64,000 bases of DNA from an uncultured Pseudomonadota bacterium (GCA_963770835.1 CAVYRH010000004.1:672001-736000), one strand, 5' to 3'. Positions 16,189 to 63,567 are shown, numbered from the stretch's first letter. Notes: generated by a model from the letters alone, not told the origin. Made by a program: numbers and translations.

Positions 16189-16198
16189 GGAGGCCGAC

Positions 16199-16495: not shown

Positions 16496-16540
16496 TTTCC
16501 TTAGGGGATCAATCAGCTTTATTTTTAAAAGGCTGGTGAA

Positions 16541-17359: not shown

Positions 17360-17572
17360 ACCTTCATATTTTTTGGTCCCCCCGGCTCATTTCCAGTAAA
17401 CCCTTATTCCGCATGCCTTGGCAAATCCGCCGCGTTACAGGCCTTGTTTTTCCTCCCGAATAAAACCTAGCTTTAAAATTAGTTCATATTGGGCCTGATT
17501 TCACCCGAATCAACAAATTTTCACACCCGCGGTCCGGGGGTGGGAGGGCCCAAGATGAGGAGGGAGGAGGCC

Positions 17573-17863: not shown

Positions 17864-17957
17864 TCCACCCGTACTCCGGGTAAGACCTTTCTCGAGCTTC
17901 GTGGAGTCCCCGGGCAAGGCCGGGGGTGAAAGGCGGCGTCTTTAAAGCCTCCGTCAT

Positions 17958-17979
17958 CAATATGACCCGGATCATATTG
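17958..17979 (+). promoter_or_regulatory. Crp/Fnr-type site CAAT-ATGACCCGGATCAT-ATTG
   Basis: Extended palindrome; TAAACT at 17998-18003 (22 bp gap). Confidence 0.7.
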
Positions 17980-18040
17980 GGCCCTGTTTTGTCCTCTTAA
18001 ACTAGGACGCTACCTCCAACACGGGGGTGGAGGAGGCTTT

Positions 18041-18862
18041 ATGATCGCTGTCCAGTCAAAACCCGAGGAGACCACCCCGGAAACGTTCGAGAAATTTGAC
18101 AAGCCAAACGCCAAGAATTGGGATGGCCTTTCCCGCATGGCCTTCGCGGCCAATTGGGACCCGGAGTCCGCCATCAACTGGGACCTGCCGATTGAATTGG
18201 GCCAGGTGAGGGAAGGATGGATCAATATCCTGCATTACTTCTATGAGGGGGAATGGCAGGGGCTGGAAATCATCCAACGGCTGATGAACAAGGCATCGCA
18301 CTTATTCAAAAATCCGGAGATGGTGACTTACTATTCCACCCAATGCAGTGATGAGGCAAAACACCTGTTCGTCTTCCGCCGGTACCTCCAAAAACTTAAT
18401 TCGCCTCCCTCCAAGCAAAAGGCCTTCGACCTCCTGGTCTGGTTGGCGACTTCCGGGCCCATGGCAGTGGAACGCTGGATTCTCGGGACTTTCTTCACTG
18501 AAACCATGGCGGGAGCCATATTCCAGAAAACCCTGGAACTCCCGGCGATCGACCCCACGGGCAAGGAAATGATCCGCTGGCAGTTGAAGGACGAATCCCG
18601 GCATATCGCGGGCACCAAATTAGGGGTTCAAACCCTCATGAATCATTGTGGGCCCGTGAAAACCCGGATCCTGAAACTTTGGTGGAAGCTATTCGTGAAG
18701 CTGGCGATTAAGGAAGTGCGGGCTTTAAAGCCTTATGGCGACCAAGTTGGCATGGATCCGGAGTACATATTGAGGCGGTCCTTCGCCAAAATGGCGGAGC
18801 TCAAGGAATTCCAAGAAAAGTTCCTCGATAATCCCCAAGCCCGGTTTTTTCTGAGGGGTTGA
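18041..18862 (+). CDS. Ferritin-like di-iron protein (AurF/desaturase-like fold)
   Basis: Paired ExxH motifs SDEAKH and KDESRH with upstream Glu residues. Confidence 0.75.
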   Translation: MIAVQSKPEETTPETFEKFDKPNAKNWDGLSRMAFAANWDPESAINWDLPIELGQVREGWINILHYFYEGEWQGLEIIQRLMNKASHLFKNPEMVTYYSTQCSDEAKHLFVFRRYLQKLNSPPSKQKAFDLLVWLATSGPMAVERWILGTFFTETMAGAIFQKTLELPAIDPTGKEMIRWQLKDESRHIAGTKLGVQTLMNHCGPVKTRILKLWWKLFVKLAIKEVRALKPYGDQVGMDPEYILRRSFAKMAELKEFQEKFLDNPQARFFLRG

Positions 18863-48685: not shown

Positions 48686-51600
48686 GTGGCCCGGCCGCTC
48701 TTTTTGGACGCCCTCAAGAAAAAAGTCCTCATCTTTGATGGGGCCATGGGCACCAATATCCAGGTTTATAACCTCACGAAAGAGGATTTCGGGGGCAAGG
48801 AGGGCCTGAACGACTACCTGGTCATCACCAAGCCCCAGGTCATCCGGGAGATCCACGAGGGGTTCCTCAAAGTGGGGGTCGACTGCCTGGAAACCAATAC
48901 CTTCGGCTCCAACCGCTTGAAACTGGAAGAGTACGGTATCGGCGACCAGATCGTGCAGGTCAACACCGCCGCCGTCAAGCTGGCGCGCGAATTGGCCGAT
49001 AAGTATTCCACCCCCGACCAACCCCGCTTCGTTGTCGGCTCCATGGGCCCCACGGGCATGCTTCCCGCCTCGGAAGACCCGGACCTGGGCAAGATCACCG
49101 TCGATGAATTGGAAGCCATTTATTATGAGCAGGCCTGCATCATGATCGACGCGGGCGTGGACGCGCTCCTGGTGGAAACCAGCCAGGACATCCTGGAAAT
49201 GCGCGCGGCGGTCTTCGGCTGCCACCGGGCGCGCACCGAGAAGAAATCACCCGTGGGGATCATGGCCCAGACCACGCTGGACACCACGGGCCGCATGCTG
49301 CTGGGCACGGACATCGGTTCGGTGCTTTCCACCTTCTCGCGCCTTCCCATCGACGTACTCGGCATGAACTGTTCCACCGGCCCCAAGGAAATGAAGGACT
49401 CGGTGCGGTACCTGGGCCAATACTCGGGCATCCCCATCTCCACGATCCCCAACGCGGGCCTTCCCGAAAACCGGGGCGGCCAGGCGGTTTATCCGCTGAA
49501 ACCGGAGGCCCTGGCGGCGGCGCTGAAGGAATTCGTCGAGGAGTTCGGCGTCAACGTGGTGGGGGGCTGCTGCGGCACCACCCATGAGCACCTGCGCCAA
49601 GTGGTCCAGGCCATCGGCCACCGGGCGCCCAAGAAGCGGGACGTGACCCACCTTTGCAACGTTTCCTCGATGATCAAGGCCGTGGACATGGACCAGGACC
49701 CCAAGCCGCTGATCGTGGGTGAGCGCGTCAATTCCCAAGGCTCCCGCAAGATCAAGCAGATGCTTTTGGCGGACGACTACGAGGGCATGGTGGCGGTCGG
49801 GCGGGGCCAGGCCGAGGGCGGGGCCCATGTGCTGGACGTCTGCGTTGCCTTGACCGAACGGCCCGACGAGAAGGACCAGATGAAGGCGGTCGTCAAAAAG
49901 CTGGCCCTGGGGGTGGATACGCCGGTCATGATCGACAGCACCGAGGCGGACGTCATTGAGGCGGCCCTGAAAATTTACCCGGGCCGGGCGATGGTGAATT
50001 CCATCAACCTGGAAGGGGACGGCTCCCGCGTGAAGCGGGTCTGCCCTTTGATCAAAAAATACGGCGCCACGGTCGTGGCCATGACCATCGACGACCTCTA
50101 TTACGACAAGTCCAAACCCGCGGAAAAGGGCATGGCGAAAACCGCCGCCCGGAAGCTGGAAGTGGCCAAGAAGATCACGGATATCTGCGTGAACGAATAC
50201 GGCATTCCCGCCGAGGACATCGTCTTCGACGCCCTCACCTTTACCCTGGCCACCGGCGAGGCGGAATTCCTGAACTCCGCCGTCGAGACCATGGAAGGCA
50301 TCAAGGCGATCAAGAAGGAAATCCCGGGCGTGCGCACCGTGTTGGGCTTGTCCAACGTGTCCTTCGGGCTTTCCAAGCAGGCGCGCGAAGTGCTCAATTC
50401 CGTCTTCCTTTACCATTGCGTGCACGCGGGGCTGGATATGGCCATCCTGAACCCGGCGGATATCAAGCCCTACGCTTCCATCGCCGGGGACGAGCGCAAG
50501 CTGGCCGACGATCTGGTCTTCAACCGCGACCCCCAGGCCCTGGCCCATTTCATCCAGCATTTCGCGGGCAAGGCCCCCGTGGAGGCCCAAGGCGCCGCCG
50601 ACCCGACGGAAGGCATGACCTTCGCCCAGAAGGTCCATTGGAAGATCGTCAACCGCAAGCCCGACAAGATCGAGGCGGACCTGGCCGAGGTGATGAAGGA
50701 AAAAACCGCCGTCGAGACCCTCAATACCGTCCTCCTTCCCGCCATGAAGGAAGTGGGGGACAAGTTCGGTTCCGGTGAATTGATATTGCCTTTCGTGCTG
50801 CAATCCGCCGAGGTCATGAAGCGGGCCGTGGCCTATGTGGAACAGTTCCTGGACAAGTCCACCGCCACCACCAAGGGCACGGTGGTGCTGGCCACCGTTT
50901 ACGGCGACGTGCACGACATCGGCAAGAACCTGGTGAGGACCATCCTTTCCAACAACGGCTACACGGTTTACGACCTGGGCAAGCAGGTGCCCGTTTCCAC
51001 CATCATCGCCAAGGCGCAGGAAGTGAAGGCCGACGCCATCGGCCTTTCGGCCCTCCTGGTGGTCACCAGCAAGCAGATGCCCATCTGCGTACAGGAACTG
51101 GAAAAGATGGGCCTCCAATATCCCGTGGTGGTTGGGGGCGCCGCCATCAACCGCCGCTATGGCTACCGCATCAGCTTCGTGGATGAGAAGCTTTACGAAC
51201 CCGGCGTTTATTACGCCAAGGATGCCTTCGAGGGGCTCGATATCCTGAACGCCCTGTCGGACCTAGCCAGTCGGGAAACCTTCCGGAACAAGGTGAAGGA
51301 AGAAGCCCTCAACTCCAAGGCCGTCGGGTTCGCCGACGCCAAGGTGGAAGAGGGGGAAGCCACGCCGGAAAAATACCCGCCCACGGTCAAACCGGCCCTG
51401 ACCATCCCGAAGAATCCCTTCGCGGGAACCTCCATTATCAACAAGGTGCCTTTAAGGGAAATCTGGCCCTATTTGGACCTGACCCAGCTTTACAAGCTCA
51501 ATTGGGGGGTCAAGGGCAAGGATTCGGAAGAGTATAAGCACCTCATCCAGACCCAGTTCGAGCCCATGCGCCTGAAGATGCAGGACGAGATTTTGGCCAA

Positions 51601-52159
51601 GAACTGGTTCGAGCCCAAGCTGGTTTATGGCTTCTGGTTGGCCAACTCGGAAGGCAACGACCTTATTATTTACGACGGCAACAACCCCAAGAAGGAACTG
51701 GAACGCTTCAAGTTCCCCCGCCAGCGCGTCGGTCGGCATTTGTGCCTGTCCGATTACTTCAAGCCGGTTGCCTCCGGCGAGAAGGACGTCGTGGCTTTCC
51801 AAGTCGTTACTATCGGCGATAAGGCCACGGAAATCATCGAGAAGTTGAACAAAGACGGAAAATACACCGATTCCTATTATTTACACGGTTTGGCCGTGCA
51901 GACCGCCGAAGCCATGGCGGAATGGATTCACCGCCGAATCCGCAAAGAATGGGACCTGCCCATCGGGCAAGGGAAGCGCTATTCGCCCGGCTATCCCGCC
52001 TGCCCCGAGCAATCGGACCAGGAAAAGTATTTCCGGCTCCTGGACGCCACCAAAGCCATCGGCATCACCCTCACGGAAGCCCACATGATGGTGCCCGAGC
52101 AGTCCACCAGCGCCATTGTCATCCACCACCCCGAATGCGAGTATTTCGCGGTGCGTTGA
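48686..52159 (+). CDS. metH: Cobalamin-dependent methionine synthase
   Basis: DGAMGT, GGCCGT, GERVN, GDVHDIGKN B12 motif, RYSPGYPACP, PEQSTSAIV. Confidence 0.96.
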   Translation: MARPLFLDALKKKVLIFDGAMGTNIQVYNLTKEDFGGKEGLNDYLVITKPQVIREIHEGFLKVGVDCLETNTFGSNRLKLEEYGIGDQIVQVNTAAVKLARELADKYSTPDQPRFVVGSMGPTGMLPASEDPDLGKITVDELEAIYYEQACIMIDAGVDALLVETSQDILEMRAAVFGCHRARTEKKSPVGIMAQTTLDTTGRMLLGTDIGSVLSTFSRLPIDVLGMNCSTGPKEMKDSVRYLGQYSGIPISTIPNAGLPENRGGQAVYPLKPEALAAALKEFVEEFGVNVVGGCCGTTHEHLRQVVQAIGHRAPKKRDVTHLCNVSSMIKAVDMDQDPKPLIVGERVNSQGSRKIKQMLLADDYEGMVAVGRGQAEGGAHVLDVCVALTERPDEKDQMKAVVKKLALGVDTPVMIDSTEADVIEAALKIYPGRAMVNSINLEGDGSRVKRVCPLIKKYGATVVAMTIDDLYYDKSKPAEKGMAKTAARKLEVAKKITDICVNEYGIPAEDIVFDALTFTLATGEAEFLNSAVETMEGIKAIKKEIPGVRTVLGLSNVSFGLSKQAREVLNSVFLYHCVHAGLDMAILNPADIKPYASIAGDERKLADDLVFNRDPQALAHFIQHFAGKAPVEAQGAADPTEGMTFAQKVHWKIVNRKPDKIEADLAEVMKEKTAVETLNTVLLPAMKEVGDKFGSGELILPFVLQSAEVMKRAVAYVEQFLDKSTATTKGTVVLATVYGDVHDIGKNLVRTILSNNGYTVYDLGKQVPVSTIIAKAQEVKADAIGLSALLVVTSKQMPICVQELEKMGLQYPVVVGGAAINRRYGYRISFVDEKLYEPGVYYAKDAFEGLDILNALSDLASRETFRNKVKEEALNSKAVGFADAKVEEGEATPEKYPPTVKPALTIPKNPFAGTSIINKVPLREIWPYLDLTQLYKLNWGVKGKDSEEYKHLIQTQFEPMRLKMQDEILAKNWFEPKLVYGFWLANSEGNDLIIYDGNNPKKELERFKFPRQRVGRHLCLSDYFKPVASGEKDVVAFQVVTIGDKATEIIEKLNKDGKYTDSYYLHGLAVQTAEAMAEWIHRRIRKEWDLPIGQGKRYSPGYPACPEQSDQEKYFRLLDATKAIGITLTEAHMMVPEQSTSAIVIHHPECEYFAVR

Positions 52160-52224
52160 AAAGCTCTTGACCGGAATATACCGAAAGGATATCTTTGTGA
52201 TATCTCTTTTGGGAGGTTTCCGCC

Positions 52225-52443
52225 ATGTCCAGCATGCTGATCAAAAATATTCCTGAGGAAATCAAGAAAAAGCTCAAGGAACAGGCCGAGCTTAACCACC
52301 GGTCCGTGAATAAACAGGTGGTGTCAATCCTGGAACAAGCGGTCGCTAAACCTGGAATCTCCGCTCTTCCCCCGCCGCTCAAATTGAAATTCCGCCCCAC
52401 GGACGCATGGCTGAACAAGGCCAAACGCTGGGGTCGTCTTTGA
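52225..52443 (+). CDS. Ribbon-helix-helix (Arc/FitA-like) antitoxin
   Basis: MLIKNIPEEIKKKLKEQAELNHRSVN; own promoter TTGACC-17-TATCTT at 52167-52195. Confidence 0.82.
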   Translation: MSSMLIKNIPEEIKKKLKEQAELNHRSVNKQVVSILEQAVAKPGISALPPPLKLKFRPTDAWLNKAKRWGRL

Positions 52444-52841
52444 TTATCGTCGACGCGAATATCCTGGTTTACCGGATTGTGGAAGGCCAAAAGACCCTGA
52501 TGGCTTTGGCGGTCCAAGAGATGGACCCGGATTGGAAAGTCTCCCCTCTTTGGAAATATGAATTTGGAAATGCCTTGGCTTTAATGATTCATCAAGGGCA
52601 TTTGACGGCCAAAGTGGCCGCTCAATTGTTGGAAACCGGCTTAAAGGCTTTTGAATCCTGTGAAGTACAGGCTGATCCTGATTTGGCGCTTTCCCTGTCG
52701 GTCGAAAAGAAAATAAGCTTTTATGACGCGCAATACTTGGCCCTTGCGAAGTCACTGGGAGTTCCACTGGTGACGGAAGACAAGGGGCTTCGCCGGGTAG
52801 GGACGGGAATGGCAGTCAGCATGGAAGAATTCCTGAATTAA
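52440..52841 (+). CDS. vapC: PIN-domain (VapC-type) toxin
   Basis: IIVDANIL, SFYDAQYLALA, LVTED; TTG start overlapping the antitoxin stop. Confidence 0.88.
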   Translation: MIIVDANILVYRIVEGQKTLMALAVQEMDPDWKVSPLWKYEFGNALALMIHQGHLTAKVAAQLLETGLKAFESCEVQADPDLALSLSVEKKISFYDAQYLALAKSLGVPLVTEDKGLRRVGTGMAVSMEEFLN

Positions 52842-52867
52842 TGAACCAAGGAACGAAGAATTTATAG

Positions 52868-52990
52868 CTTCTGGACGCCACCAAGGGCATCGGCATCACG
52901 CTGACGGAGGCCCACATGATGGTGCCAGAACAATCCACCAGCACCATCGTTATCCACCACCCCGAGTGCGAGTATTTTGCGGTAAGATAG
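52868..52990 (+). repeat. Copy 1 of the metH 3' end (last 40 codons plus stop)
   Basis: Aligns ungapped to 52037-52159; 38/40 aa identical. Confidence 0.95.
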
Positions 52991-53032
52991 GCCCCTGTAA
53001 GCCGGGTTTTTGTATTTTAAGGGGAGGAATTT

Positions 53033-55045
53033 ATGAAAAGTTCGCTTTGTTTATTGGGAAAAGTTTTTTCAACCTTGTTTTTCTTTCTGGCCGCCGTTCA
53101 TCCCGGTTTTGCCGACGATTCGGCCAACAGCCTCAATCCTGAAACCCAATACACTCTTCCCTCGGGCGCGAGCTTCAATGTCCCCAAGGGTTGGGATGTC
53201 CAAGCAAAAGGCGGAAGCTTCATTCTCCACGATCCCGAACACCTCGTGACACTTGTGCTCACTGAGAACGAGGAGATAAGCCCCCAGGACGCGCTTCAGA
53301 AAGCGTGGAAAAGTTATAATCCCGATTTCTCCTATGCTGTTGCCACGCATGAATTTCCCAAGAGGGATAAGTGGGACCAGGTTTGCCGGCAATGGTATTT
53401 CGTGCCGAGCGAGCAAGATCCCTATAAAGCCAATGACACCCGGGGGCTTTATGCGTTTGCGGGGAAAAAGGACGACCGTTGGTATGTAGCCTTGATGGAT
53501 TACGACAAAGTCTCCGCGGACAAACGCCAAGCCCAAGTTGAAGTCATCATCGGCAGTTTAAAAATTCCCGGCGCAAAACCCACGCCGACGCCCGCCCAAG
53601 ACGTTCAAATGGACGACAAGTTCTTCAAGACCTTCGAGGATTTCCTGGAACACGCCCGGAATGACTGTAAAGTGCCCGGGGCGGCGGTGGCCATTGTGAA
53701 GGACGGGAAGATCGTTTACGAGAAGGGTTTCGGGGTCTGTGAGAAGGGCAAAAAGGACCCAGTGACGACGAAAACCTTGTTTTCCATCTCCGGCATCACC
53801 GTGCCCCTGACGACACTTTTGATGGCCCGGCTGGTGGACGCGGGGAAAATGAGCTGGGACACCCCCGTCACCCAGCTTTTGCCCGGGTTTCAATTGGGCG
53901 ACCCGAAAACGACGTCGGAACTTACCTTGAAATACACGGTTTGCGCCTGCGCGGGGCTGGCCCGCCAGGACCCCGTACTGGTTTTCCCCACCGGTTACAG
54001 CAGCCCCGAAACGGTCATTGAAAAGATGCTCGCCATTATGCCTACCGCCGGATTCGGGGAAATTTTCCAATCGAGCAACATCCTGGTGGCGACCGGCGGT
54101 TTCGCCGCGGCCCACGCCCTCCATCCGGACCTGCCGCTGGGCCAAGCCTACGCCGCCGCCATGAAGGAATATGTTTTCGACCCCCTGGGAATGGCGGACA
54201 CCACCCTGGATTTCCAATCGGTCGCCGCCAAGGAGCATGGGACTCCCCATTGCTACGTCCGGGATTATGATTACGACACCGTACCCTTGGCTTATGACGA
54301 CTGGACCCTCCCCGTGGCCCCCGCGGTCGGCGCCTGGTCCAACGTCGAGGATATGTCCAAATACCTCCTGCTGGAACTCAACAAAGGCATAGGGCCGGAT
54401 GGAACCCGTGTTGTTTCCGAAGCCAACCTCCTAAAGCGCCGTGAGCCCCACGTGAAAATCAACGAGGATTCCGATTACGGCCTGGGATTGAAAGTTTCGA
54501 ACGACAAGGGAATCACGGTAGTGGGCCAGGGCGGAATTTCCACGGGTTACACTTCCGACATGGTTTTCATGCCGGACCGGAATATGGGGATGGTTTTGCT
54601 GACGAACGCCGACTACGCGGGATATTTCCGTGGCGCCGTTTACCAGAAGCTGATGGAGCTTATTTCCGGAAGGGAGGCCCACGCCCAAGAGAATCTTGAC
54701 TCTGAATTGAGCACCCGGAGGAAGCAAGGACAAATACTAGCGGATTGGGCGAACAGCCAGATGTCCCAGTCTTGGTTTTATGATTTCGTGGGGACTTACT
54801 TTAACGAAGACCTCGGTGCCGTCTCCCTCAAAATGACCAATGAGGGTGGAATTTTCGACGCAGGCAAATGGAAGACTCACGTGGCGGGTACTGCCGGGCG
54901 TAATGGGGAAACCAAGTTCTACCTTACGGATCCCCCCATCATCTGGTCGCAGTTTATTTTGAACGATCAGGACGGGCACAAGACCATGACCTACAAGACG
55001 TCCCAAAAGGACTATGTCTTCGAATGGGTTTCCAAAAACCAGTAA
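53033..55045 (+). CDS. Secreted serine hydrolase, beta-lactamase/AmpC-like family
   Basis: Signal peptide, VPGAAVAIVKDG, VF.PLGM; SxxK (ISGITV), YxN (SSN) and HxG (QGG) positions are degenerate. Confidence 0.8.
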   Translation: MKSSLCLLGKVFSTLFFFLAAVHPGFADDSANSLNPETQYTLPSGASFNVPKGWDVQAKGGSFILHDPEHLVTLVLTENEEISPQDALQKAWKSYNPDFSYAVATHEFPKRDKWDQVCRQWYFVPSEQDPYKANDTRGLYAFAGKKDDRWYVALMDYDKVSADKRQAQVEVIIGSLKIPGAKPTPTPAQDVQMDDKFFKTFEDFLEHARNDCKVPGAAVAIVKDGKIVYEKGFGVCEKGKKDPVTTKTLFSISGITVPLTTLLMARLVDAGKMSWDTPVTQLLPGFQLGDPKTTSELTLKYTVCACAGLARQDPVLVFPTGYSSPETVIEKMLAIMPTAGFGEIFQSSNILVATGGFAAAHALHPDLPLGQAYAAAMKEYVFDPLGMADTTLDFQSVAAKEHGTPHCYVRDYDYDTVPLAYDDWTLPVAPAVGAWSNVEDMSKYLLLELNKGIGPDGTRVVSEANLLKRREPHVKINEDSDYGLGLKVSNDKGITVVGQGGISTGYTSDMVFMPDRNMGMVLLTNADYAGYFRGAVYQKLMELISGREAHAQENLDSELSTRRKQGQILADWANSQMSQSWFYDFVGTYFNEDLGAVSLKMTNEGGIFDAGKWKTHVAGTAGRNGETKFYLTDPPIIWSQFILNDQDGHKTMTYKTSQKDYVFEWVSKNQ

Positions 55046-55069
55046 TTCGGGTCGAATCGGGTTTGATAA

Positions 55070-55150
55070 GCCTTCATAATATTGCCGGAATAATCCACCA
55101 GCGCCATTGTCATCCGCTACCCCGAAAGCGAGTATTTCGCGGCGAGGTAA
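55070..55150 (+). repeat. Copy 2 of the metH 3' end (degraded, internal stop)
   Basis: Reads AFIILPE*STSAIVIRYPESEYFAAR* against AHMMVPEQSTSAIVIHHPECEYFAVR*. Confidence 0.9.
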
Positions 55151-55174
55151 AAGCTTCAGGAAAAGGAGTTTTGC

Positions 55175-56017
55175 ATGAAGAAGATCGCTTTATCTTTTGC
55201 GCTCGTTTTTCTGGGAGTTTCCAGCGGTTATGCCGCCACCGATAAGGACACGGTCGATTTTTTAAACAAACTCAATGGCCATTACTATTGTTTGATGCGG
55301 GAAGGGCTCCTGGATTTCCAGGCGGGGATCAAGTGCTCTTTTTTTGATGATTATTTAAAACAATGCTCGGCGAAATACGGTCCCGATGATAAGAGGGTCC
55401 AGGAACTCAAAAAGATTAAATTTGTCCTTTCCTGTTCGGGGAAGAATGAGTTTTCCTTTGAGGCCGCTTACGCTGAACCAAGCGGCGACCCGGCTTTCGA
55501 CGAAATCGTTCAAAAAATGATTGGGGTCGTGAAGGGGGCTTTTCAGCAAAACATTTTCCCTTGGCGCTCGAATGTCTTGGAGCCCGTCTTCGGGGCGGAC
55601 GATTACGCGAAATTCGACCTGCAAGTGGAGAAAAAAGACGGCGGATTCGTCATCTATTCCACGGGGGACCAGCCCGTCAGCGAGTACGCCGATAACCAAT
55701 GGAGAATTTACGAAATTGAGGCGGGCGGCAAGGCGAACGTCCAATCCTGCAAGCTCAAATATATGGATACCTCCAAGGGGATGATCTTATCCGAAACCAC
55801 CTCTGAGCTGCCCCAAGTGTCCACCGAGATAAATGCAAAGATGGAGTACCGGTCGGTGGATGGGTTCATGATGCCCAAAAGAATGTTGGTGCACATGAAG
55901 AAAACCGGGGACTCCGGCACCACTAACCTCGATGTGATTTTTGAATTTGTGGATTATCGGATTGATAAAGGCCAGGCGGAAACGAAGCCAACCGATCAAA
56001 CCGAAACGGGATTTTAG
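55175..56017 (+). CDS. Hypothetical secreted protein
   Basis: AAGGAG RBS, signal peptide ending GYA. Confidence 0.75.
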   Translation: MKKIALSFALVFLGVSSGYAATDKDTVDFLNKLNGHYYCLMREGLLDFQAGIKCSFFDDYLKQCSAKYGPDDKRVQELKKIKFVLSCSGKNEFSFEAAYAEPSGDPAFDEIVQKMIGVVKGAFQQNIFPWRSNVLEPVFGADDYAKFDLQVEKKDGGFVIYSTGDQPVSEYADNQWRIYEIEAGGKANVQSCKLKYMDTSKGMILSETTSELPQVSTEINAKMEYRSVDGFMMPKRMLVHMKKTGDSGTTNLDVIFEFVDYRIDKGQAETKPTDQTETGF

Positions 56018-56036
56018 CGATAGCCTTGAGATTTTA

Positions 56037-56086
56037 GGCGCCATCGGCATTCACGAACTGAAAGCAAGTATTTTGCAGTGAGATAA
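56037..56086 (+). repeat. Copy 3 of the metH 3' end (short, 1-nt deletion)
   Basis: GCGCCATCGGCATTCAC...GAAAGCAAGTATTTTGCAGTGAGATAA, ending YFAVR*. Confidence 0.75.
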
Positions 56087-56091
56087 GAAGG

Positions 56092-57123
56092 TTGAAATTG
56101 AAAAGATATTTAATACTGGCTCTTATATCCTTGCTTTTCACTTCCGCAAACGCCCAATCCATCAATCCCGTTCATTTTGGATACATCAAGTGGGATAAGG
56201 ACAAGCCGATTGTCCGGTTGGAAATGAATCTTGCACCCTCTATTACGGAAAAAGATCCTGGGGATTTATACGAGCTATTTATAAAAATATTTTTGGAAAA
56301 AGATTTATCCAAACCGGTTTCCGGGATTTACAACTGGCCCAACGAGAAGGATAGGCGTAATCCCCGCACAAAGTTGAAAGAAACACAGCTAACCGAAAGC
56401 CAATTTAAAAGTTTGGCGACTGAGAAAATCGGGGATGTTTATACCCTGGTTAGCCCCGGAGGAATTTGGCAAGCCAAGGTAACGGGTGGAACGATAGCGA
56501 TCGATGAACAATTTGATGATTTGTTCCGGGTTTATTTGGATTTGGAAATCGATCATTTTAAGCCCCCCATTGAAACGGCGGGAAAATCGAGGGTTGAAAC
56601 TGTAGGATTCGTTGGAAGTCATACGGTGAGCAATTTAAAGAGTTATGAGCAAGTATCCCTTGGACAAGACCAACAAATGGGCATTGAAAAACTTTTACGG
56701 GCCAAAATAAAAAAAGGGTTTAATGATTATTATTTTAACTATTTTCGAAACGGCCCGGATTTGATGGTTGTGGCCGACAATGTTGCCGTGGATGGATCTG
56801 AAAAGAAATATGAAGGAGATTACGAAGAAGTTGCCAAGTTCCAATCGGCGGTCTATTTACTCAGGGATGGACAGCTTCTGGATATTTTTCCAGCCAAAGT
56901 GGCCCGTAATAATGAGGTCGATACGCCTTCTTCTTACAAAGCTTTGTATCGGTTTGAAGTTGATGGCGAGAAATATGAATGTATCGAGGAAGATGGGCAA
57001 TCTTGCTGTACCGGGGGACCTTTTTCGCAGTATCACGTTTTTAAATTTAACCCCAAAACGACTTCTTTTAAAGAGATCGGAGAAAGTCGGGATTATCCAC
57101 TTTGCATGGAGTTGTTTCTTTAA
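56092..57123 (+). CDS. Hypothetical secreted protein (AT-rich)
   Basis: TTG start, signal peptide ending ANA, 343 aa. Confidence 0.7.
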   Translation: MKLKRYLILALISLLFTSANAQSINPVHFGYIKWDKDKPIVRLEMNLAPSITEKDPGDLYELFIKIFLEKDLSKPVSGIYNWPNEKDRRNPRTKLKETQLTESQFKSLATEKIGDVYTLVSPGGIWQAKVTGGTIAIDEQFDDLFRVYLDLEIDHFKPPIETAGKSRVETVGFVGSHTVSNLKSYEQVSLGQDQQMGIEKLLRAKIKKGFNDYYFNYFRNGPDLMVVADNVAVDGSEKKYEGDYEEVAKFQSAVYLLRDGQLLDIFPAKVARNNEVDTPSSYKALYRFEVDGEKYECIEEDGQSCCTGGPFSQYHVFKFNPKTTSFKEIGESRDYPLCMELFL

Positions 57124-57209
57124 CCAATGCCCACATGATGGTGCCCGTACAATCCACCAGCGCCATCGTTATCCATAATCCGGATTGCGAATGCTTCGCG
57201 ATTAGATAA
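57120..57209 (+). repeat. Copy 4 of the metH 3' end
   Basis: Reads LTNAHMMVPVQSTSAIVIHNPDCECFAIR*. Confidence 0.92.
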
Positions 57210-57777
57210 TTTTCTGCCGACCTAAAATTTAGATGGCATGTATTTTTTATTAACATTAATTATTTTTTTCAAATTCGATTGAACAATTTTTTAATTCAAA
57301 CCAAGTTAAGGATGCTTTTTTTATTTCACCGAAAACAGACATGATTTCTCCACGTTGGGAAAATTTGAGTTTTGGACATGAACTTATATTCACATCAAAA
57401 TTTATCATAGGATAATTGAAGGTATTTCCGATTTCAGAGGCAACAACAGTAACCATTCCTTCTTTGAGAGCGGAGGAAACAGAATGAAGTCGGACCTTCC
57501 AAGCAATTTTAAAGTTTTTGTATTCTTCACTCATTTTTTCTTGTTGATACGGCGGTAATTTATTCAATTGTTTTGAAATTTCCGTTGGGGTTGGATCAGT
57601 ATGGTATGAATTTTTTTGATCGAGTTTACTTTTTTCAATCATGACAACAGGAGATTCGGGATTTGATGTTTTTGGTTTTTGATTAGTGGAAGGCGCAGAA
57701 TTGTAATTGTTTTGAATTATTACATTCGCATTATTTTGTTGGTTCGAAGAGCCGGGAGAATTTTCATTATTTAAATT

Positions 57778-58948
57778 GTAACCTCTGAAAAACTCCTTCG
57801 TCTAAATGCTGAAATATAATAGCAGCATTCCAGACGGAGGGATTCCATGCAAATCAGCTTCGGGATGTACGAGGACAAGAACCGGCGACTCAAAAAGACC
57901 ATGCTAGAGGAAGTGGATAAGGTTCTGGACTTTCCGAAGATCGAGAAATTGCTGATGGAAATGTACCGGGGCAACACGGGGAGACCTCCCATCCCGCCTT
58001 TGATCTTGTTTAAATGCCTTTTGCTGGAATCCTGGTACGGCCTGTCGGATGTGGAAGTAGTCCAAGAAATCCACGACCGGCGCAGTTTTGAGCGGTTCGT
58101 GGGTGAAGGGGTGCGAGAGTACCACGTCGACGACACCACTTTGGTGAAGTTTCGGGAAAGACTCCGGGAAGCCGGTTTGATAGACCGGGTTTGGGGGGCC
58201 GTGCAACAGGGTTTAGATCGCAAAGGACTTTTGGTCAAGAAAGGGGCCATTGTGGACTCCACCCTGGTGGAAGGAGCCTGTAAACCGGAATCCAAGGATC
58301 AAGAGGGAAAGCCGGTGGATGAAGATGTTCATTACACCTCCCGGCAAGGAAAAGCCGTGGATGGGATGAAGGTTCATGTGGGTCAGGACGAGAAAAGCGG
58401 CCTGATTCGAAAGATGGATCTAAGTCATATTGAGGAACACGATCACGAACATTTCAAAGACATGGTTCCTCGCGGGGTAGAACAGGCATTTGCTGACAAG
58501 GCTTACCGGTCGGCGCAACACGATGAATATTTGGAGGAACGAGGGATTCGGAATCGAGTGTTACATCGTGTTTGGCGGGGACAGAAGCTGACCCAGAGGC
58601 AATTAAAGCAAAACAAGGTTTGGGGCCGTGTGAGGTGCGGGATCGAGGCGACAATGAGTACCTTGAAGCGGTGGTGTTCGATGGGACGAATGAGGTACTA
58701 CGGGATGGCCCGAAACAAGATTTGGGTGTTGATCTGTGGCATCGCATTTAATGGGAAAAGAGCCGTAAAGTTGGCGGCGGCCTGAGCTAAGGGGAGTTTT
58801 TTCAGAGGCAGATGACGCAAGAAGGGTCGAAAAAGGAGTTCTAGGAGTAAGTGCAACACCTTTGGAGAAACAAAAACATCTCCAAGCGGGGTTGAAAACC
58901 CTGGTGAGAAGAGTTTCAAACCAAAACAGGGAGTTTTTCAGAGGTTAC
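57778..58948 (+). mobile_element. IS5-family insertion sequence
   Basis: Terminal IRs GTAACCTCTGAAAAACTCC / GGAGTTTTTCAGAGGTTAC, flanking direct repeat AAATT (boundary ambiguous by 1-2 nt). Confidence 0.9.
57847..58785 (+). CDS. IS5-family DDE transposase
   Basis: GRPP, WYGLSD, DDTTLVKFR, IVDST, ADKAY, R..IE. Confidence 0.92.
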   Translation: MQISFGMYEDKNRRLKKTMLEEVDKVLDFPKIEKLLMEMYRGNTGRPPIPPLILFKCLLLESWYGLSDVEVVQEIHDRRSFERFVGEGVREYHVDDTTLVKFRERLREAGLIDRVWGAVQQGLDRKGLLVKKGAIVDSTLVEGACKPESKDQEGKPVDEDVHYTSRQGKAVDGMKVHVGQDEKSGLIRKMDLSHIEEHDHEHFKDMVPRGVEQAFADKAYRSAQHDEYLEERGIRNRVLHRVWRGQKLTQRQLKQNKVWGRVRCGIEATMSTLKRWCSMGRMRYYGMARNKIWVLICGIAFNGKRAVKLAAA

Positions 58949-59252
58949 AAATTATTATTTTGCTTTTTGGGTTTTCCCTGTAAGAAATAGACGAGAACTG
59001 CAACGCCGACTCCAGAGAATATCCAAGGAATGTTATTTTTTAGAATCTGAATCAAAGAGATTTTATCCATTGATTTGATCGTACAAGTTAGCTCTTTATT
59101 AAATCAAGCGAAAAAGCCTGGTGAAAGGTCTGGACATGAAAAAGAATTTTAGCCAGTTAGCTTTCAACGGGACCTCCAGACTTAAACTATTTTATTCTTC
59201 CTCATCCAAAGAATCGCGCCCATGTGATCGCGGCCATACCAAGCGTTGGCGT

Positions 59253-59712: not shown

Positions 59713-59834
59713 TATTCTGCCAATAATATGCGCAGCGCATATTATTGGCAGAATAGGCGGGTTCAAAAACGGGTTGGTGCCCAAGATTTAGAATTAATCT
59801 GCCAATAATATCAGCCGCTGATATTATTGGCAGA
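59713..59834. repeat. Two related perfect palindromes (43 bp and 37 bp), 82 bp apart
   Basis: TCTGCCAATAATAT-GCGCAGCGC-ATATTATTGGCAGA and TCTGCCAATAATAT-CAGCCGCTG-ATATTATTGGCAGA. Confidence 0.9.
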
Positions 59835-59866
59835 ATAGCCGGGTTGAAATCAAGAGATTGCCCAAA

Positions 59867-60382
59867 TTAAAGCTTTTTGTTTTCCCTCATCCAAAGAACC
59901 TGGCCTGTGTGGTGGAGGCCATGCCAGGCATAGGTGCCCAAAGCCGTTGAAAGCTTGGTGGCCTGGTTGTTCCGGGGGTTGATATAGGCCCGGGCGAACT
60001 CTTCCTCCGTCATGGACCGCATCAACTGCGCCCATTGGCGATGAAGCCCCTCGAGCAAGCCCAAGGGCCCCTCGACCGGCCCCGTTTTTGATTCCACCAA
60101 ATCCACCAATTTATTCCTGTCGTAACCCTTCGTCACCGGCTGTTCCTCGGTCAGCGCCAATTTAAAGTTGACGTAGCCAAACGTATGGCTATCCGCCAAG
60201 TGGTGGACGATCTGGCGGATGGTCCAGTTCTTATACTTCGTGTCCAGTTGGGCGTCCGAGAGGCCCGCCACGGCTTCCCGGAGGGCTTGGGGGGCCTTTT
60301 CGATAATGGCGATCAATTCTTTTATGGGCGGGTTTTCTTCCGTATTTGGGTTGGGTCCGACGGGGTAATCAGGGGCTTCCAT
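59867..60382 (-). CDS. YfiT/DinB-family metal-dependent thiol transferase (copy 1)
   Basis: WTIRQIVHHLADSH, YAWHGLHH. Confidence 0.88.
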   Translation of the reverse strand: MEAPDYPVGPNPNTEENPPIKELIAIIEKAPQALREAVAGLSDAQLDTKYKNWTIRQIVHHLADSHTFGYVNFKLALTEEQPVTKGYDRNKLVDLVESKTGPVEGPLGLLEGLHRQWAQLMRSMTEEEFARAYINPRNNQATKLSTALGTYAWHGLHHTGQVLWMRENKKL

Positions 60383-60447
60383 GGTTTTCTCCTCGGTTTT
60401 GGGATTGGAAGGCTTATAGTAAGCCAAAATTTAATGGAGGTTTCAAT

Positions 60448-61017
60448 ATGTTCAGCAAGTATGCCGCCTTCATAACGGTCCTGTTCCTAGCTTATTCCAT
60501 TTGCGGAGCCCAAACGGTCCAACCTACCACCGCCCCGGCGCCTGCGGCGGGGAAACGCAAGCCCATCACCATGGAATGGGGGGGCCTGAACGGTATTCAT
60601 TATTACTATGCGGGGTACAAAGCCGATGGGGTGGAGGGATTATCGGGCATCATCACATCCCTGCATGACCCCGAGGCCACCCGGCTGGTCGCCGCCGCCC
60701 GGAATGACGAAAATACGGGGGGGCTTTTCACGGTGGGGGGGCTGGTTTTCCTCGCCGCCGGGGCCATCGTTGTGGGTACGGACCCCAATTCCCAAAAGAC
60801 CACCCAAGACATCGACGGACGGCAAGCGGCGGGCTTGGGGATGAGCCTGGCCGGTTTGGTGGGAGGGGTTTTCGGCCTGCTCAACCTGGATGATGCCAAG
60901 GCCGACGAGTTCAACGCGGTCCAGCGTTACAACGCCGTCGTGCGGGGGGAGGACGAAACCTCCTGGAACCTTCCCGATCCCGGGCTGCGGACAAAGCTTC
61001 TGACTTTGAAGTTCTAG
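60448..61017 (+). CDS. Exported/membrane hypothetical protein (copy 1)
   Basis: GGAGG RBS, signal peptide, two Gly-rich hydrophobic helices, AVQRYN...LTLKF. Confidence 0.72.
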   Translation: MFSKYAAFITVLFLAYSICGAQTVQPTTAPAPAAGKRKPITMEWGGLNGIHYYYAGYKADGVEGLSGIITSLHDPEATRLVAAARNDENTGGLFTVGGLVFLAAGAIVVGTDPNSQKTTQDIDGRQAAGLGMSLAGLVGGVFGLLNLDDAKADEFNAVQRYNAVVRGEDETSWNLPDPGLRTKLLTLKF

Positions 61018-61122
61018 CTTTTCCCAGGTTCCCAAAGTAAGCATTTTTCAAGTTTTCAGATGGGAAGATAATCCTCGAAGCATTCCGCCATTTGTTGAAA
61101 ACCAACCAGTAGCGGGCAAAAG

Positions 61123-61638
61123 TTAAACTCGCTTGCTTTCCCGCATCCATAGGATCTGCCCCGTGTGGTGGCGGCCATGCCAGGCATAGGTGCCTACGGC
61201 GCTTTTCAGGGTGATCACCCGGTTGCGGTCGGGATGGATGAAGGCGCGGTTGAATTGCTCCTCCGTCATGGACCGCAATAACTGCACCCACTGCTTGTGA
61301 ATCCCCTCTATCATGGCCAGGGGGCCGTCAATAGGCCCCGTTTTCGATTCCTCCAAGTCCGACCACTTCCCATCGTCATAAGCCTTGATGACCGGCTGGT
61401 CCTCGGTGAGCGCCCATTTGAACCGGATGTAGCTGTTGGCGTGGCTGTCCGCCAAGTGGTGGACGATCTGGCGGATAGTCCAGTTCTTATACTTCGTGTC
61501 CAATTGGGCGTCCGACAGACCCCCGACGGCCTCCCGAAGGGCATGGGGGGCTTCTTCAATAATGGCGATCAATTCTTTCCGGGGCGGATTTTCTTCCTCT
61601 TTCAGGTTCGGGCCAACGGGGAATTGGGGCGCTTCCAT
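61123..61638 (-). CDS. YfiT/DinB-family metal-dependent thiol transferase (copy 2)
   Basis: WTIRQIVHHLADSHANSY, YAWHGRHH. Confidence 0.9.
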   Translation of the reverse strand: MEAPQFPVGPNLKEEENPPRKELIAIIEEAPHALREAVGGLSDAQLDTKYKNWTIRQIVHHLADSHANSYIRFKWALTEDQPVIKAYDDGKWSDLEESKTGPIDGPLAMIEGIHKQWVQLLRSMTEEQFNRAFIHPDRNRVITLKSAVGTYAWHGRHHTGQILWMRESKRV

Positions 61639-61717
61639 GATTTTCTCCTGGGTTCTGGTTTATGATGTGGCAACTTTATACGGCTTTTCAGCAAAAATCA
61701 CCTGTCCGGGGGAAAAA

Positions 61718-62521
61718 GTGGGAGCTCCTTTTTTTCAAGTCGACGCTTTCGTTACCGATAAGCCTTTCTCGGGAAACCCGGCGGGGGTCTGCGTCCTGCC
61801 CGGCCCGGTGGAAGAGGCTTGGATGCAGAGCCTCGCCATGGAAATCAACCAGGCCGAAACGGCGTTCCTTCACCCGGAGGGGAACGGCTACCGGCTGCGC
61901 TGGTTCACGCCCAGGATGGAAATTTCCCTTTGCGGCCACGGAACCTTGGCCAGCGCCCATGTGCTCTGGAGCGAGGGGTTTCTAGGAAAGGGAAGGGAAG
62001 CCCTGTTTCACACGAAAAGCGGGTTGTTGAAGGCCGCCCAAAGGGATGGACGTATCGAAATGGATTTTCCCGCCAGGCCCGTCGAGCCTTGCGTCAAGCC
62101 CCCGGGGTTCGAGGAATCACTCGGTGTTCCCGTCCTGGGTTTAAGCCAAAGTGGAACCGCGTATTTGTCCGAATTGTCCTCCCCCGCCGCTGTCCGCGGG
62201 CTGAAGCCGGATTTCAAAAAAATGGAATCTTACCTCGACGAACAGCTGCACGGTGTCATCGTCACGGCGGCCTCGGACGACCCGGCCTATGATTTTGTTT
62301 CCCGTTTCTTCGCTCCGACGGCGGGAATCCCGGAAGACCATGTCACCGGTTCGGCCCACTGCTGCCTGGGGCCCTTTTGGCAAAAGCGGCTTGGAAAAAA
62401 CAACTTCACGGCTTTTCAAGCCTCGGCCCGGGGCGGTATCCTATCGGTTCGCTGTGAAGGGGATCGCGTTTATTTGGGCGGGAAGGCCGTAACGGTCACC
62501 CGCGGGGAATTACTTTTATAA
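61718..62521 (+). CDS. PhzF-family isomerase
   Basis: QVDAF, GNPAGV, ETAF, LCGHGTLA, EDHVTGSAH. Confidence 0.9.
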   Translation: MGAPFFQVDAFVTDKPFSGNPAGVCVLPGPVEEAWMQSLAMEINQAETAFLHPEGNGYRLRWFTPRMEISLCGHGTLASAHVLWSEGFLGKGREALFHTKSGLLKAAQRDGRIEMDFPARPVEPCVKPPGFEESLGVPVLGLSQSGTAYLSELSSPAAVRGLKPDFKKMESYLDEQLHGVIVTAASDDPAYDFVSRFFAPTAGIPEDHVTGSAHCCLGPFWQKRLGKNNFTAFQASARGGILSVRCEGDRVYLGGKAVTVTRGELLL

Positions 62522-62531
62522 GGAGATTCTT

Positions 62532-63098
62532 ATGTTCAGGAGAATGATCGTTTTGATGCCGGTATTATTTGTGGGGTTCCTCTTTCATTCGGTTTGTGGG
62601 GCCCAGGCGGCCCAACCTACACCCGCTCCGACAACTGAAAAACGCAAACCCATCGTTTGTAAATGGACGACGCTGGAAGGAATGCGTTACTACTATTCTG
62701 GGGTCAAAATCGCCGACGACAAAAGCTTGGGAAACCTCATTTCTCCCCTGAACGACCCCGAAGCCAACCGTCTTATGGACGTCTCCTCCGGTTCCCACAC
62801 TTCCGGGGTTGTCCTCCTTGTGGGAGGGAGCGTTTGTCTAGTTGGGGGATTAGTGGTGGCTGGGAGCAATTACGATAACGGTTCCCAAGCCCTCAATTCG
62901 ACCGGAACATCCGGACTCGTGATCGCATTGGCCGGTTTGGTGGGGGATTACGTTGGATTATTCAAGATCGAGGAATCACGGACCGCCCAATTCGCCGCCG
63001 TTCAGCGTTATAACGCCATCGTTCACGGGGACGATGAAACCACCTGGAACCTACCCAAGCCCGGAATGCAAACACAACTTCTAACACTCAAATTTTAA
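62532..63098 (+). CDS. Exported/membrane hypothetical protein (copy 2)
   Basis: Paralog of 60448-61017 (KRKPI, DPEA.RL, AVQRYNA, WNLP.PG, LLTLKF). Confidence 0.75.
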   Translation: MFRRMIVLMPVLFVGFLFHSVCGAQAAQPTPAPTTEKRKPIVCKWTTLEGMRYYYSGVKIADDKSLGNLISPLNDPEANRLMDVSSGSHTSGVVLLVGGSVCLVGGLVVAGSNYDNGSQALNSTGTSGLVIALAGLVGDYVGLFKIEESRTAQFAAVQRYNAIVHGDDETTWNLPKPGMQTQLLTLKF

Positions 63099-63123
63099 TC
63101 TTCGTTCATAAACCGGAGGGGCC

Positions 63124-63567
63124 ATGCCGGATTTAAAAACTATTGTTGAAGAAAACCAAAACCAGCGGGAACGGCTTGTATCGCTGATGAAGGCCCTGCG
63201 GGAGTCGGATTATTCCCGGGTCTTGCCCAACGGCTGGACGGTGGGGGTTGCACTGGCCCACCTGGCTTTTTGGGACCTAAGCCAGGTCGCCCGATTGAAG
63301 CGCTGGTTGCAAGAAGACCTGAAGCCGTCCTCCCTGGATGCGGAAGCCGTCAACGGTCCGCTGGCGGCCCTTTCCGAAGCCCTCCCGCCCAAGGCCGTCG
63401 TCAAACTGGCGACTGGCGCGGCGGAAGCCATTGACCGGCTGGTGGAGCAATTGACTCCCGAACAGGTTGAAACCTTGCTGGGGATGGGGCTGGAGCGCAA
63501 CCTGCGCCGGTCCATCCACCGGCAGAATCACCTGGACAAAATCGAAGAAGTATTGGGTAAGGGCTAA
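63124..63567 (+). CDS. DinB/MDMPI-like protein
   Basis: GWTVGVALAHLAFWD, H...H near the C-terminus. Confidence 0.7.
   Translation: MPDLKTIVEENQNQRERLVSLMKALRESDYSRVLPNGWTVGVALAHLAFWDLSQVARLKRWLQEDLKPSSLDAEAVNGPLAALSEALPPKAVVKLATGAAEAIDRLVEQLTPEQVETLLGMGLERNLRRSIHRQNHLDKIEEVLGKG

Follow-up and report, generated by a model that had tools for sequence, protein, structure and literature searches.

Results

The metH locus and its repeated 3' end. The window (the whole stretch of DNA analyzed; 64,000 nucleotides), from an uncultured soil bacterium, carries an intact metH gene, the 3' end of which is followed by four direct copies of itself, in register, that separate four cargo units (Table 1). 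The preliminary description had reported four metH-tail copies, each ending at the stop codon, behind four units of cargo, and all of these were located, with variable starts. The stop codons of the relics lie at 52990 (TAG) and at 55150, 56086, and 57209 (all TAA). Without gaps, the copies matched the live tail at 112/135 (copy 1), 67/83 (copy 2), and 63/81 (copy 4) positions, and copy 3 did so at 20/27 positions of its last stretch. A BLASTN search of the 4.58-Mb assembly with the metH tail, as had been suggested, recovered copies 1, 2, and 4 (E values, 3e-37, 1e-17, and 2e-13, respectively) and placed them at the metH locus only. Copy 3 was silent in BLASTN and scored 38 on a tail profile (all 20 shuffled 9-kb controls, <22). 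Scanning the genome with this profile, a scan that perhaps left the last contigs uncovered, returned five metH copies only.

Table 1. Features of the metH array and its surroundings
Feature	Position	Strand	Evidence
metH, B12-dependent methionine synthase (1157 aa), intact anchor	48686..52159	+	TIGR02082, 1091 bits, above cut-off; Pfam domains
Live metH tail, last 123 nt, the stretch copied in relics	52037..52159	+	
Cassette 1, promoter-like site	52167-52195	+	Consensus match only
Cassette 1, antitoxin, FitA-like ribbon-helix-helix	52225..52443	+	PF22513, E 2.5e-11
Cassette 1, toxin, PIN domain	52440..52841	+	PF01850
Relic tail 1, -123 to stop; weak extension to 52856	52868..52990	+	
Cassette 2, 670-aa beta-lactamase-fold protein, signal-peptide-like start, likely inactive	53033..55045	+	
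Relic tail 2, -83 to stop, in-frame stop	55068..55150	+	
Cassette 3, 280-aa protein without Pfam family, signal-peptide-like start	55175..56017	+	
Relic tail 3, most decayed	56038..56086	+	Profile score; alignment to L051 junction
Cassette 4, 341- to 343-aa orphan protein, 41% GC	56092..57123	+	
Relic tail 4, -81 to stop; weak extension to about 57114	57129..57209	+	
IS5-family element, 25-nt inverted ends, outside array	57772..58954	+	

The MetH C terminus is conserved (88 to 100% across most of the family). Relic 1 differs from the live tail by 15 synonymous and 2 nonsynonymous changes, and relic 4 differs by 12 and 5, respectively. The 5' end of relic 2 encodes Ala-Phe, as in the metH allele of other genera, where the live gene of this genome encodes Ala-His. 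Relic 3 was probably once a relic starting near -105 that has lost an internal stretch, as judged from its alignment to the corresponding junction in a related metagenome locus (L051). Decay is out of step with the order of the array, copy 4 being better preserved than copy 3.

Assembly support. Given that the source genome was assembled from a metagenome (3.65% contamination) and that no single contig covers the whole array stretch, the array might be a mis-assembly of the metH loci of several strains. We give this almost no credence. Contigs from four runs (three studies; the best of the four runs may be the source sample) bridge all four relic junctions with 0 to 1 differences, which lends no support to the concern over assembly raised in the preliminary description; moreover, the relics are truncated and carry stops, and cassettes 2 and 3 recur in L051, ordered as here and with the same spacer between them. 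In run X7, which is of low depth, cassettes 3 and 4 were covered and cassettes 1 and 2 hardly so, a hole that proves nothing. The contigs of the four runs, from which rare forms are dropped, contained no tail-to-tail joint, circle, or empty site between tails. One joint, from 52005 to 57144 (26-nt side), was found and may belong to another organism's metH.

Cassettes and neighboring genes. The cargo of these arrays comprises toxin-antitoxin (TA) pairs, secreted proteins, and orphans, with no restriction-modification genes. Scans for promoters and terminators performed no better than chance. The TA pair of the preliminary description was confirmed; its "serine hydrolase" (cassette 2) needs revision. 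Gly and Val occupy the positions of the Ser and Lys of the SxxK motif in the closest solved relative. Because these residues are replaced here and are retained in the orthologue (49%) from the L051 array, the cassette 2 protein of this genome is likely inactive. Neither the cassette 3 nor the cassette 4 protein had a Pfam match. The Atlas look-alikes of the former are unnamed clusters and DUF3386 (a lead only), and the Atlas matches of the latter were all under 0.9; homologues of cassette 4 were absent from 98 other genomes of the phylum. The IS5 transposase lies approximately 640 bp past copy 4, and the element is a later arrival, since some contigs (runs X1 and X7) show its empty site.

Shared cassettes and strain-level exchange. 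Relatives in candidate division FCPU426 (five genera) showed metH relics in 7 of the 22 genome stretches, as did 6 of the 23 metagenome loci; with three duplicates removed, 10 distinct loci remain in all. The relics start at about -123 to -26, with clusters near -105 and -85. Cassette content and order, the comparison on which the preliminary description had staked its reading, vary among these relatives. The FitA/PIN pair also lies behind metH or a metH relic in G002, G010, G045, L064, and L073, and in G020 and L071 the cassette 3 gene comes directly after the live metH stop, whereas in L051 it comes after a relic. For FitA/PIN, HigBA, and the cassette 3 gene alike, some loci have the cassette immediately downstream of the live stop and others have it downstream of a relic, with comparable spacing in the two settings. 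The expectation that cargo homologues would sit beside metH tails was thus borne out in relatives, but not for the closest homologues of the TA toxin (64 to 69% identity), which are located away from metH. Beta-lactamase-fold genes near metH in G045 and G020 were considered as instances of cassette 2 and excluded as 23%-identical paralogues.

Three near-identical metagenome loci bear on how cassettes are exchanged. L059 and L147 share 98% identity across 2658 nt, and their live tails and first relics are identical. Eight differing positions fall inside the second relic, the third cassettes differ, and on the far side there are 42 clustered differences before identity resumes. L073 has the same relic junction, another 3' part, and yet another third cassette. 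Because the three loci share the 5' junction, switch sequence inside the relic, and carry different next cassettes, relics serve as crossover points. Cassette exchange therefore takes place at internal relics as well as at the live tail. The data from these three strains would also agree with a fixed crossover near -85. The last 12 to 72 bases of the tail showed no linkage to the next cassette (P = 0.43 to 0.85). Comparison of metH tail and body divergence in 28 loci revealed no excess in array carriers, among species that are near synonymous saturation.

The same footprint at other genes. Ten other genes of this genome have tail relics like those of metH, and gene starts show the mirror image. 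For 2,113 open reading frames (ORFs; at least 250 aa), a noncoding copy of the tail was present downstream of 14, a copy of the head was present upstream of 9, and a copy of the middle was present downstream of none. Some duplications extend across a gene junction, as at TPR-MarC (-59 to +77). The earlier proposal of a special, integron-like site anchored on metH is not supported in view of these loci.

Origin of the relics. Ten metH relics differ from their own live tails by 75 synonymous and 33 nonsynonymous changes, where local duplication followed by decay would give an expected synonymous share of 36% (P = 2e-12). Eight relics at other genes yielded 69 and 28 changes, respectively (P = 3e-12); relics are not independent observations, for either P value. 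The G045 relic was left out because a 1-nt indel put its alignment out of register (83/62 with it, 75/33 without it); the G010 relic, copy 3 of the window, the 26-nt L051 relic, and duplicates were also uncounted. The predominance of synonymous differences (75/108 versus 36% expected) suggests that the relics are likely displaced tails that were once functional. We also ranked 22 tails (including that of G007, later recognized as a relic) by similarity to each of seven relics. The tail of the relic's own genome placed 1, 1, 2, 5, 5, 6, and 15, ranks that match neither a strictly local origin nor a strictly foreign one.

These data bear on a second explanation, in which insertion of cargo at a gene end duplicates the host's own 50- to 270-bp target and the duplicate later decays or undergoes partial conversion. 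Furuta, Abe, and Kobayashi (2010; PMC2853133) reported such long target duplications around restriction-modification genes where other mobile elements were lacking; the units are small selfish gene pairs flanked by genome-unique direct repeats of >30 bp, lack mobility genes, and come mostly from species that are naturally competent. The metH array likewise has genome-unique repeats of >30 bp, an insert of <20 kb, and no mobility gene. The oligopeptidase relic (1 synonymous and 6 nonsynonymous changes) fits local duplication, two metH relics are closest to the tail of their own genome, the TPR-MarC copy crosses a gene junction, and at 2 of 22 loci homologues of the TA pair lie between duplicated ends of other genes. 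Nevertheless, we regard this explanation as improbable: the synonymous excess (75/33 and 69/28) is far above the expectation for local duplication, every metH relic stops at the stop codon with no common downstream bases, and relic 2 carries the allele of other genera. Furthermore, the published cases, as tabulated, are near-identical repeats of 44 to 49 bp around restriction-modification genes (PMC2853133), whereas metH-type arrays hold TA and secreted cargo between repeats that are 78 to 96% alike, synonymously biased, and up to four deep.

Search for recombinases, attachment sites, and competence genes. No PF00589 or PF00239 gene was found on the 779-kb contig, in agreement with the preliminary description that no recombinase adjoins the array, except that the IS5 transposase is close by. 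Elsewhere in the genome, there are 12 tyrosine recombinase (PF00589) matches, IntI possibly among them, and for all 11 tail anchors the nearest recombinase gene is at least 65 kb off or not on the contig. Across 45 loci, many of them on short contigs, no recombinase match occurred in 386 kb downstream of metH; in a leave-one-out control, the search recovered 11 of 12 recombinases. In line with the reported absence of an attC-like hairpin, no short-loop hairpin from 52 to 57.3 kb ranked among the 25 longest inverted repeats. The spacers between cassettes are coding metH tails, and no shared element-side arm was found ahead of the relics. ComEC (PF03772; E value, 3.5e-53) and DprA (PF02481; 4.4e-68) are both encoded, their genes being widespread (10 to 11 of 14 controls).

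The relics could alternatively be attR sites of integrative elements that accreted in tandem at metH, with the integrases later deleted (as in CIMEs) or a recombinase acting in trans. Accretion is a known route to tandem gene-end repeats: in Dehalococcoides ssrA islands and CIMEs, repeats of the anchor's 3' end bound successive islands, some of them integrase-less (PMC3146451; bioRxiv 10.64898/2026.01.13.699239). It also predicts displaced, synonymously diverged tails, and both the clustering of relic starts near -105 and -85 and the 12 tyrosine recombinase matches are in its favor. We consider it unlikely, because no recombinase match lies in the 386 kb downstream of metH or near the 11 anchors, and separate specificities would be needed for 11 unrelated gene ends as well as for gene starts. 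The relics range from about 26 to about 270 nt, in contrast to the fixed 20-bp ssrA repeats, and lack a common element-side arm (although trimming could hide a fixed site), and cassette exchange occurs behind a junction that is already trimmed. The described islands have a fixed short repeat, and many of them have integration modules (PMC3146451; bioRxiv 10.64898/2026.01.13.699239), with only 6% lacking integration vestiges in the preprint (bioRxiv 10.64898/2026.01.13.699239), whereas no such module was found at the metH array, with its variable starts.

The architecture also matches that of the yeast WHO elements at FBA1, where a housekeeping 3' end is replaced and pushed downstream and the newest unit adjoins the live gene (PMC7282813). 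By analogy, an endonuclease would cut near the metH end, and the cassette would be copied in with a resistant tail. WHO elements involve a cargo-encoded endonuclease with one cut site at one gene in eukaryotes (PMC7282813). Here, no DNA endonuclease family was detected among the cassette proteins scanned, the TA, secreted, and orphan cargo has no nuclease family in common, the anchors are many, and the relic starts vary; a homing-type element is thus very unlikely.

Discussion

We consider it fairly likely that the array arose as accessory cassettes stacked up between metH tails, which host homologous recombination displaced one by one, with no dedicated integrase. DNA from a relative, carrying a metH end and the adjoining gene(s), would enter the cell and cross over within the last 75 to 125 nt of metH, probably as a trimmed, recircularized fragment. 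This single crossover would rebuild metH with the incoming end, and the previous end would come to lie downstream of the cargo and begin at a variable 5' position; only gene-end events would survive, because the gene stays intact. An existing relic would provide a second homology handle, so that cassettes could be added, swapped, or lost by tail-tail crossovers, and relics and spacers would be trimmed by small deletions. The preliminary description had likewise envisaged DNA with a tail and cargo repeatedly displacing the metH tail, and our results support this part of its reading. In favor of the homologous recombination model are the cassette pool common to several genera, the excess of synonymous changes in relics, the switches of sequence within relics of near-identical strains, the ten other anchor genes, the lack of nearby recombinase genes, and the presence of comEC and dprA. 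Against it we count the clustered rather than evenly spread relic starts, the agreement of the three-strain data with a fixed crossover, the absence of circles and empty sites from the contigs, the missing linkage between tail bases and next cassette, the mixed ranking of own-genome tails, and, in species near synonymous saturation, the lack of excess tail divergence.

The component processes have precedents. With one-sided homology in Escherichia coli, 56 of 60 clones had gene-end duplications of 109 to 950 bp, which arose via trimming, circularization, and a single crossover (PMC3240628). These duplications are alike in needing no integrase and in their variable length; they differ in that they involved an engineered plasmid in the laboratory at very low frequency (PMC3240628). 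Classical homology-facilitated illegitimate recombination (HFIR) leads to deletion, not duplication, and no natural stacked array is described in the portions of the single-crossover and HFIR reports available (PMC3240628, PMC11751169). The likeness to Rhs tip displacement proposed earlier also stands: strings of variable-length anchor fragments lie behind an intact gene, and incoming DNA shunts the old end downstream by homologous recombination without an integrase, for which a circular intermediate was proposed (Jackson et al. 2009, PMC2935791). In Rhs loci, it is the toxic tip of the anchor protein itself that is exchanged (PMC2935791), whereas here the MetH protein stays the same, the cargo consists of free-standing genes past the stop codon, and numerous unrelated housekeeping genes serve as anchors. 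The finding is less surprising than previously held, because its parts are known from Rhs loci, long target duplications, and one E. coli experiment.

Literature searches, in which subscription papers were mostly outside the coverage, returned no explicit description of stacked housekeeping gene tails without an integrase and nothing on FCPU426 islands. Integrons hold compact one- or two-gene cassettes, including many TA pairs, drawn from a pool common to relatives and inserted proximally. The metH array resembles them in all of these traits and differs in having no IntI nearby and in that its repeat is a variable-length coding gene end, not an attC hairpin. To our knowledge, the minimal mobile elements of Neisseria leave no duplicated tail.

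How small TA modules and lone accessory genes in chromosomes move when no mobile element carries them has, as far as we know, found little explanation. A gene end repeated behind cargo is a countable footprint that island finders based on integrases or tRNAs would miss, and the metH-type loci give strain-level evidence that leftover ends are reused as crossover points. It is possible, if somewhat doubtful, that FCPU426 bacteria exchange cassettes without an integrase, using leftover gene ends repeatedly as recombination handles, and that metH, leuA, and further housekeeping genes are sites at which different genera share a circulating pool of TA and secreted-protein genes. RecA alone would then replace the integron, and such a system may represent a general, undescribed route for chromosomal TA modules and orphan genes.

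Gene-end copies downstream of metH

Four direct copies of the last codons of metH (here termed relics) follow the intact gene, and the cassettes of the array encode a FitA-like/PIN toxin-antitoxin (TA) pair, a protein with a beta-lactamase fold, and two proteins that match no Pfam family. The statement in the preliminary description that all four copies end at the metH stop was borne out by the in-register stops. Three copies were recovered by genome-wide BLASTN (E-values, 3e-37 to 2e-13), and the third, short copy scored 38 on a tail profile (0/20 shuffles reached 22). Genome-wide BLASTN detected no further copy elsewhere in the 4.58-Mb assembly. Every relic begins no more than about 5 to 26 nt from the preceding cargo stop. 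The G+C content is 60% for metH and drops to 41% for the last cassette. Mis-assembly is barely credible, given that contigs from four sequencing runs (the best of which may be the source sample) bridge all four relic junctions; no single contig from these runs spans the entire array. The array is a real and well-supported observation.

In the beta-lactamase-fold protein (cassette 2), Gly and Val replace the catalytic Ser and Lys, which we take to be those of the SxxK motif, and Ser replaces the Tyr of the YxN motif. Its orthologue in the compared locus L051 retains these residues. The cassette 2 protein may be an enzyme that has lost its activity, or it may function in binding. In three runs, an IS5-family element located beyond the array was covered approximately 5 to 10 times as deeply as its flanks, and its site was empty in contigs of two runs (X1 and X7); this element is a later insertion. 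Several relatives likewise have the DinB/PhzF block on the distal side of their metH array.

Locations of features in the window, in other contigs of the same genome (C), and in compared loci (L)
Feature	Sequence	Location	Remark
metH	window	48686-52159	intact anchor gene
metH copy 1	window	52990 (stop-codon end)	
metH copy 2	window	55150 (stop-codon end)	
metH copy 3	window	56086 (stop-codon end)	
metH copy 4	window	57209 (stop-codon end)	
Cassette 2	window	53033-55045	
IS5-family element	window	57772-58954	
Adjacent 43-nt palindromes	window	59713-59755, 59795-59837	near perfect, 86% alike; between HTH gene and DinB-family gene
DinB/PhzF block	window	59867-63567	PhzF gene amid three DinB-family genes and a pair of small secreted-type paralogues
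addA gene-start relic	C26 (L169)	96568-97677	upstream of live gene
carB gene-start relic	C3 (L170)	161070-161640	upstream of live gene
TPR gene end/MarC gene start junction	C16 (L098)	14250-18561	three copies, TA-like pairs between them
Direct repeats, 74-254 bp	C26	54764-56148, 608536-611359	flank TA-like pairs; no long ORF as anchor
Identical 37-bp element, 25 places	C3, C15, C16	C3 48.6-102 kb, 383-401 kb	orientation mostly uniform within each region
Deletion	L059	8351-8889	adjacent TA cassettes fused, relic between them gone
Deletion	L073	296-1135	adjacent TA cassettes fused, relic between them gone

metH loci in relatives

The close metH relatives bear the title candidate division FCPU426. 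The scan for relics covered 0.4 to 18 kb downstream of metH at 45 loci, of which 22 were genome stretches and 23 were metagenome contigs. Relics were present in seven genome stretches from five genera (G000, G001, G002, G004, G007, G010, and G045) and in six contigs, three of which duplicate other loci; L147, from a further set of 12 loci, is one additional relic-bearing locus. The other scanned loci had no detectable relic and had diverse genes directly 3' of metH. No relic was detected behind metH in L046 (G021), L032, and L033 (G023, G011), where metH is directly followed by genes provisionally labeled as a restriction-modification-like cluster or as Fic-like.

Cassette content and order, proposed earlier as a check, differ among the loci: HigBA, relic, cassette 2, relic, cassette 3, relic, and another gene in L051; a DUF4258 pair, relic, and FitA/PIN in G045; and a lipoprotein-like gene, relic, HigA, and cassette 3 in G004. 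Displacement predicts that the same cassette lies behind the live stop in some loci and behind a relic in others. This was observed for FitA/PIN (live stop in G000, G002, and L064; relic in G045 and L073), HigBA (live stop in L051; relic in G004), and cassette 3 (live stop in G020 and L071; relic in G000 and L051). In L059, a relic precedes a FitA antitoxin without its toxin. A search of 98 further genomes from the phylum detected no homologue of cassette 4.

In three loci, L077 (G023), L078, and L088 (G021), small genes and TA pairs are set apart by a 29- to 34-bp imperfectly palindromic repeat, which may mark another cassette system, distinct from the metH arrays, in this bacterial family.

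Relics at other genes

The same genome contains tail relics (approximately 48 to 270 nt) behind further genes, i.e., leuA (two), an asparagine synthase gene, a rhomboid-family gene (two), an oligopeptidase gene, a glycosyltransferase gene, a DEAD-box helicase gene, the TPR-MarC junction (two), two pirin-like genes, and another gene; the labels pirin, TPR, and DUF1501 on anchor genes are our assumption. TA pairs (MNT-HEPN, Phd-PIN, ParE-like, or PIN) are frequent among the cargo, which sometimes lies on the opposite strand. Among 2,113 ORFs (≥250 aa), 14 had a noncoding tail copy downstream (11 were checked by eye, and at least one of the remaining three is a dispersed repeat), 9 had an upstream copy of their head (checked for addA and carB), and none had a mid-gene copy downstream. 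A PIN-like pair or a small gene lies between the gene-start relics and live addA or carB. Eight relics at other genes had 69 synonymous and 28 nonsynonymous changes. Two long leuA relics with different cargo were present in G002, and none was found in nine other relatives (11 loci scanned). The footprint is not specific to metH, and the notion of a special metH-anchored site was not supported, given the same relics behind other genes and their mirror image at gene starts.

Whether cargo homologues lie beside metH tails had been proposed as a check. Of 22 PIN toxin matches, 4 are at metH; the closest homologues are located away from metH. Two others are bracketed by duplicated ends of other genes, 3 are surrounded by short repeated elements, and 13 have no flanking repeat within 1.5 kb. 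The anchor of the C26 direct repeats may be a short gene or an RNA gene, and the 37-bp element may represent an IS or intron terminus.

Recombinases

The reported absence of a nearby integrase was confirmed: none of the genome's 12 tyrosine recombinase and 1 resolvase matches is on the metH contig, and these recombinases, used as queries, had no match in 386 kb downstream of metH at the 45 loci (control, 11/12). For 11/11 tail anchors, the nearest recombinase is at least 65 kb away or absent from the contig. No dedicated recombinase was found for the relic arrays; we consider an origin of the relics from decayed site-specific elements unlikely and one through homing very remote. The genome encodes ComEC and DprA, which would permit DNA uptake.

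Relics as probable former metH tails

Relative to the live tail of their own genome, 10 metH relics had 75 synonymous and 33 nonsynonymous changes (P = 2e-12; G045 was dropped because of an indel, and four other relics were left uncounted), and copy 1 alone had 15 and 2 (P = 2e-5). Local long target duplication followed by decay predicts 36% synonymous changes and is, against these counts, quite improbable. The 5' end of copy 2 encodes Ala-Phe, an allele of other genera, and the genome's own metH has Ala-His. Copy 3, which follows cassette 3, aligns to the junction 3' of that cassette in L051, and an internal part of copy 3 has likely been deleted. On these sequence comparisons, the relics are likely once-working metH tails. 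Counting against this reading, live tails are no more diverged than the metH gene body and tail ends are unlinked to the next cassette (saturation weakens both tests), and the own tail ranked first for only 2/7 relics.

Crossovers inside relics

L059 and L147 are 98% identical across 2,658 nt, with identical live tails and first relics. Their second relics differ at eight positions, all in the last 78 nt (six codons synonymous, one not), and their third cassettes are unrelated; on the far side, 42 differences cluster in 641 nt, followed by 1,360 identical nt. L073 shares the junction of L059, differs from it only in the relic's last 39 nt (five synonymous codons), and has behind that relic a cassette different from those of both. 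The metH body and higA likewise contain clustered patches of differences. On this alignment evidence, the pattern indicates a two-ended homologous replacement in which diverged donors supplied the DNA and the relic region was the left anchor, and the relics appear to serve as crossover points. A fixed crossover near position -85 is compatible with these three loci taken by themselves. The TA modules fused by deletion in L059 and L073 are mismatched (FitA with HigA; a PIN end with a HigA fragment).

Known systems and proposed mechanism

The array works like Rhs tip displacement (PMC2935791) and resembles WHO clusters at FBA1 (PMC7282813), long target duplications (PMC2853133), and ssrA island accretion (PMC3146451); it departs from each family in a defining property. 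For the Staphylococcus aureus lpl genes, a related evolutionary unit that extends across two genes has been reported (PMC2568036). A literature search that covered main texts and few subscription papers found no paper describing stacked housekeeping-gene tails without an integrase.

We consider that the array probably formed through host homologous recombination. The repeated displacement of the metH tail by an incoming tail plus cargo, as proposed initially, is supported by the live-stop and relic positions and the synonymous bias. The incoming fragment would consist of a gene end and adjoining cargo, with a crossover within the resident gene end. Trimming, circularization, and a single crossover would best explain the first event; in Escherichia coli, this route gave 109- to 950-bp gene-end duplications in 56/60 clones (PMC3240628). 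Alternatively, a linear donor already carrying a relic could have entered by double crossover, with no circular intermediate; the data fit both routes. Under host homologous recombination, the old gene end left behind the cargo would become a handle for later cassette additions, swaps, and losses.
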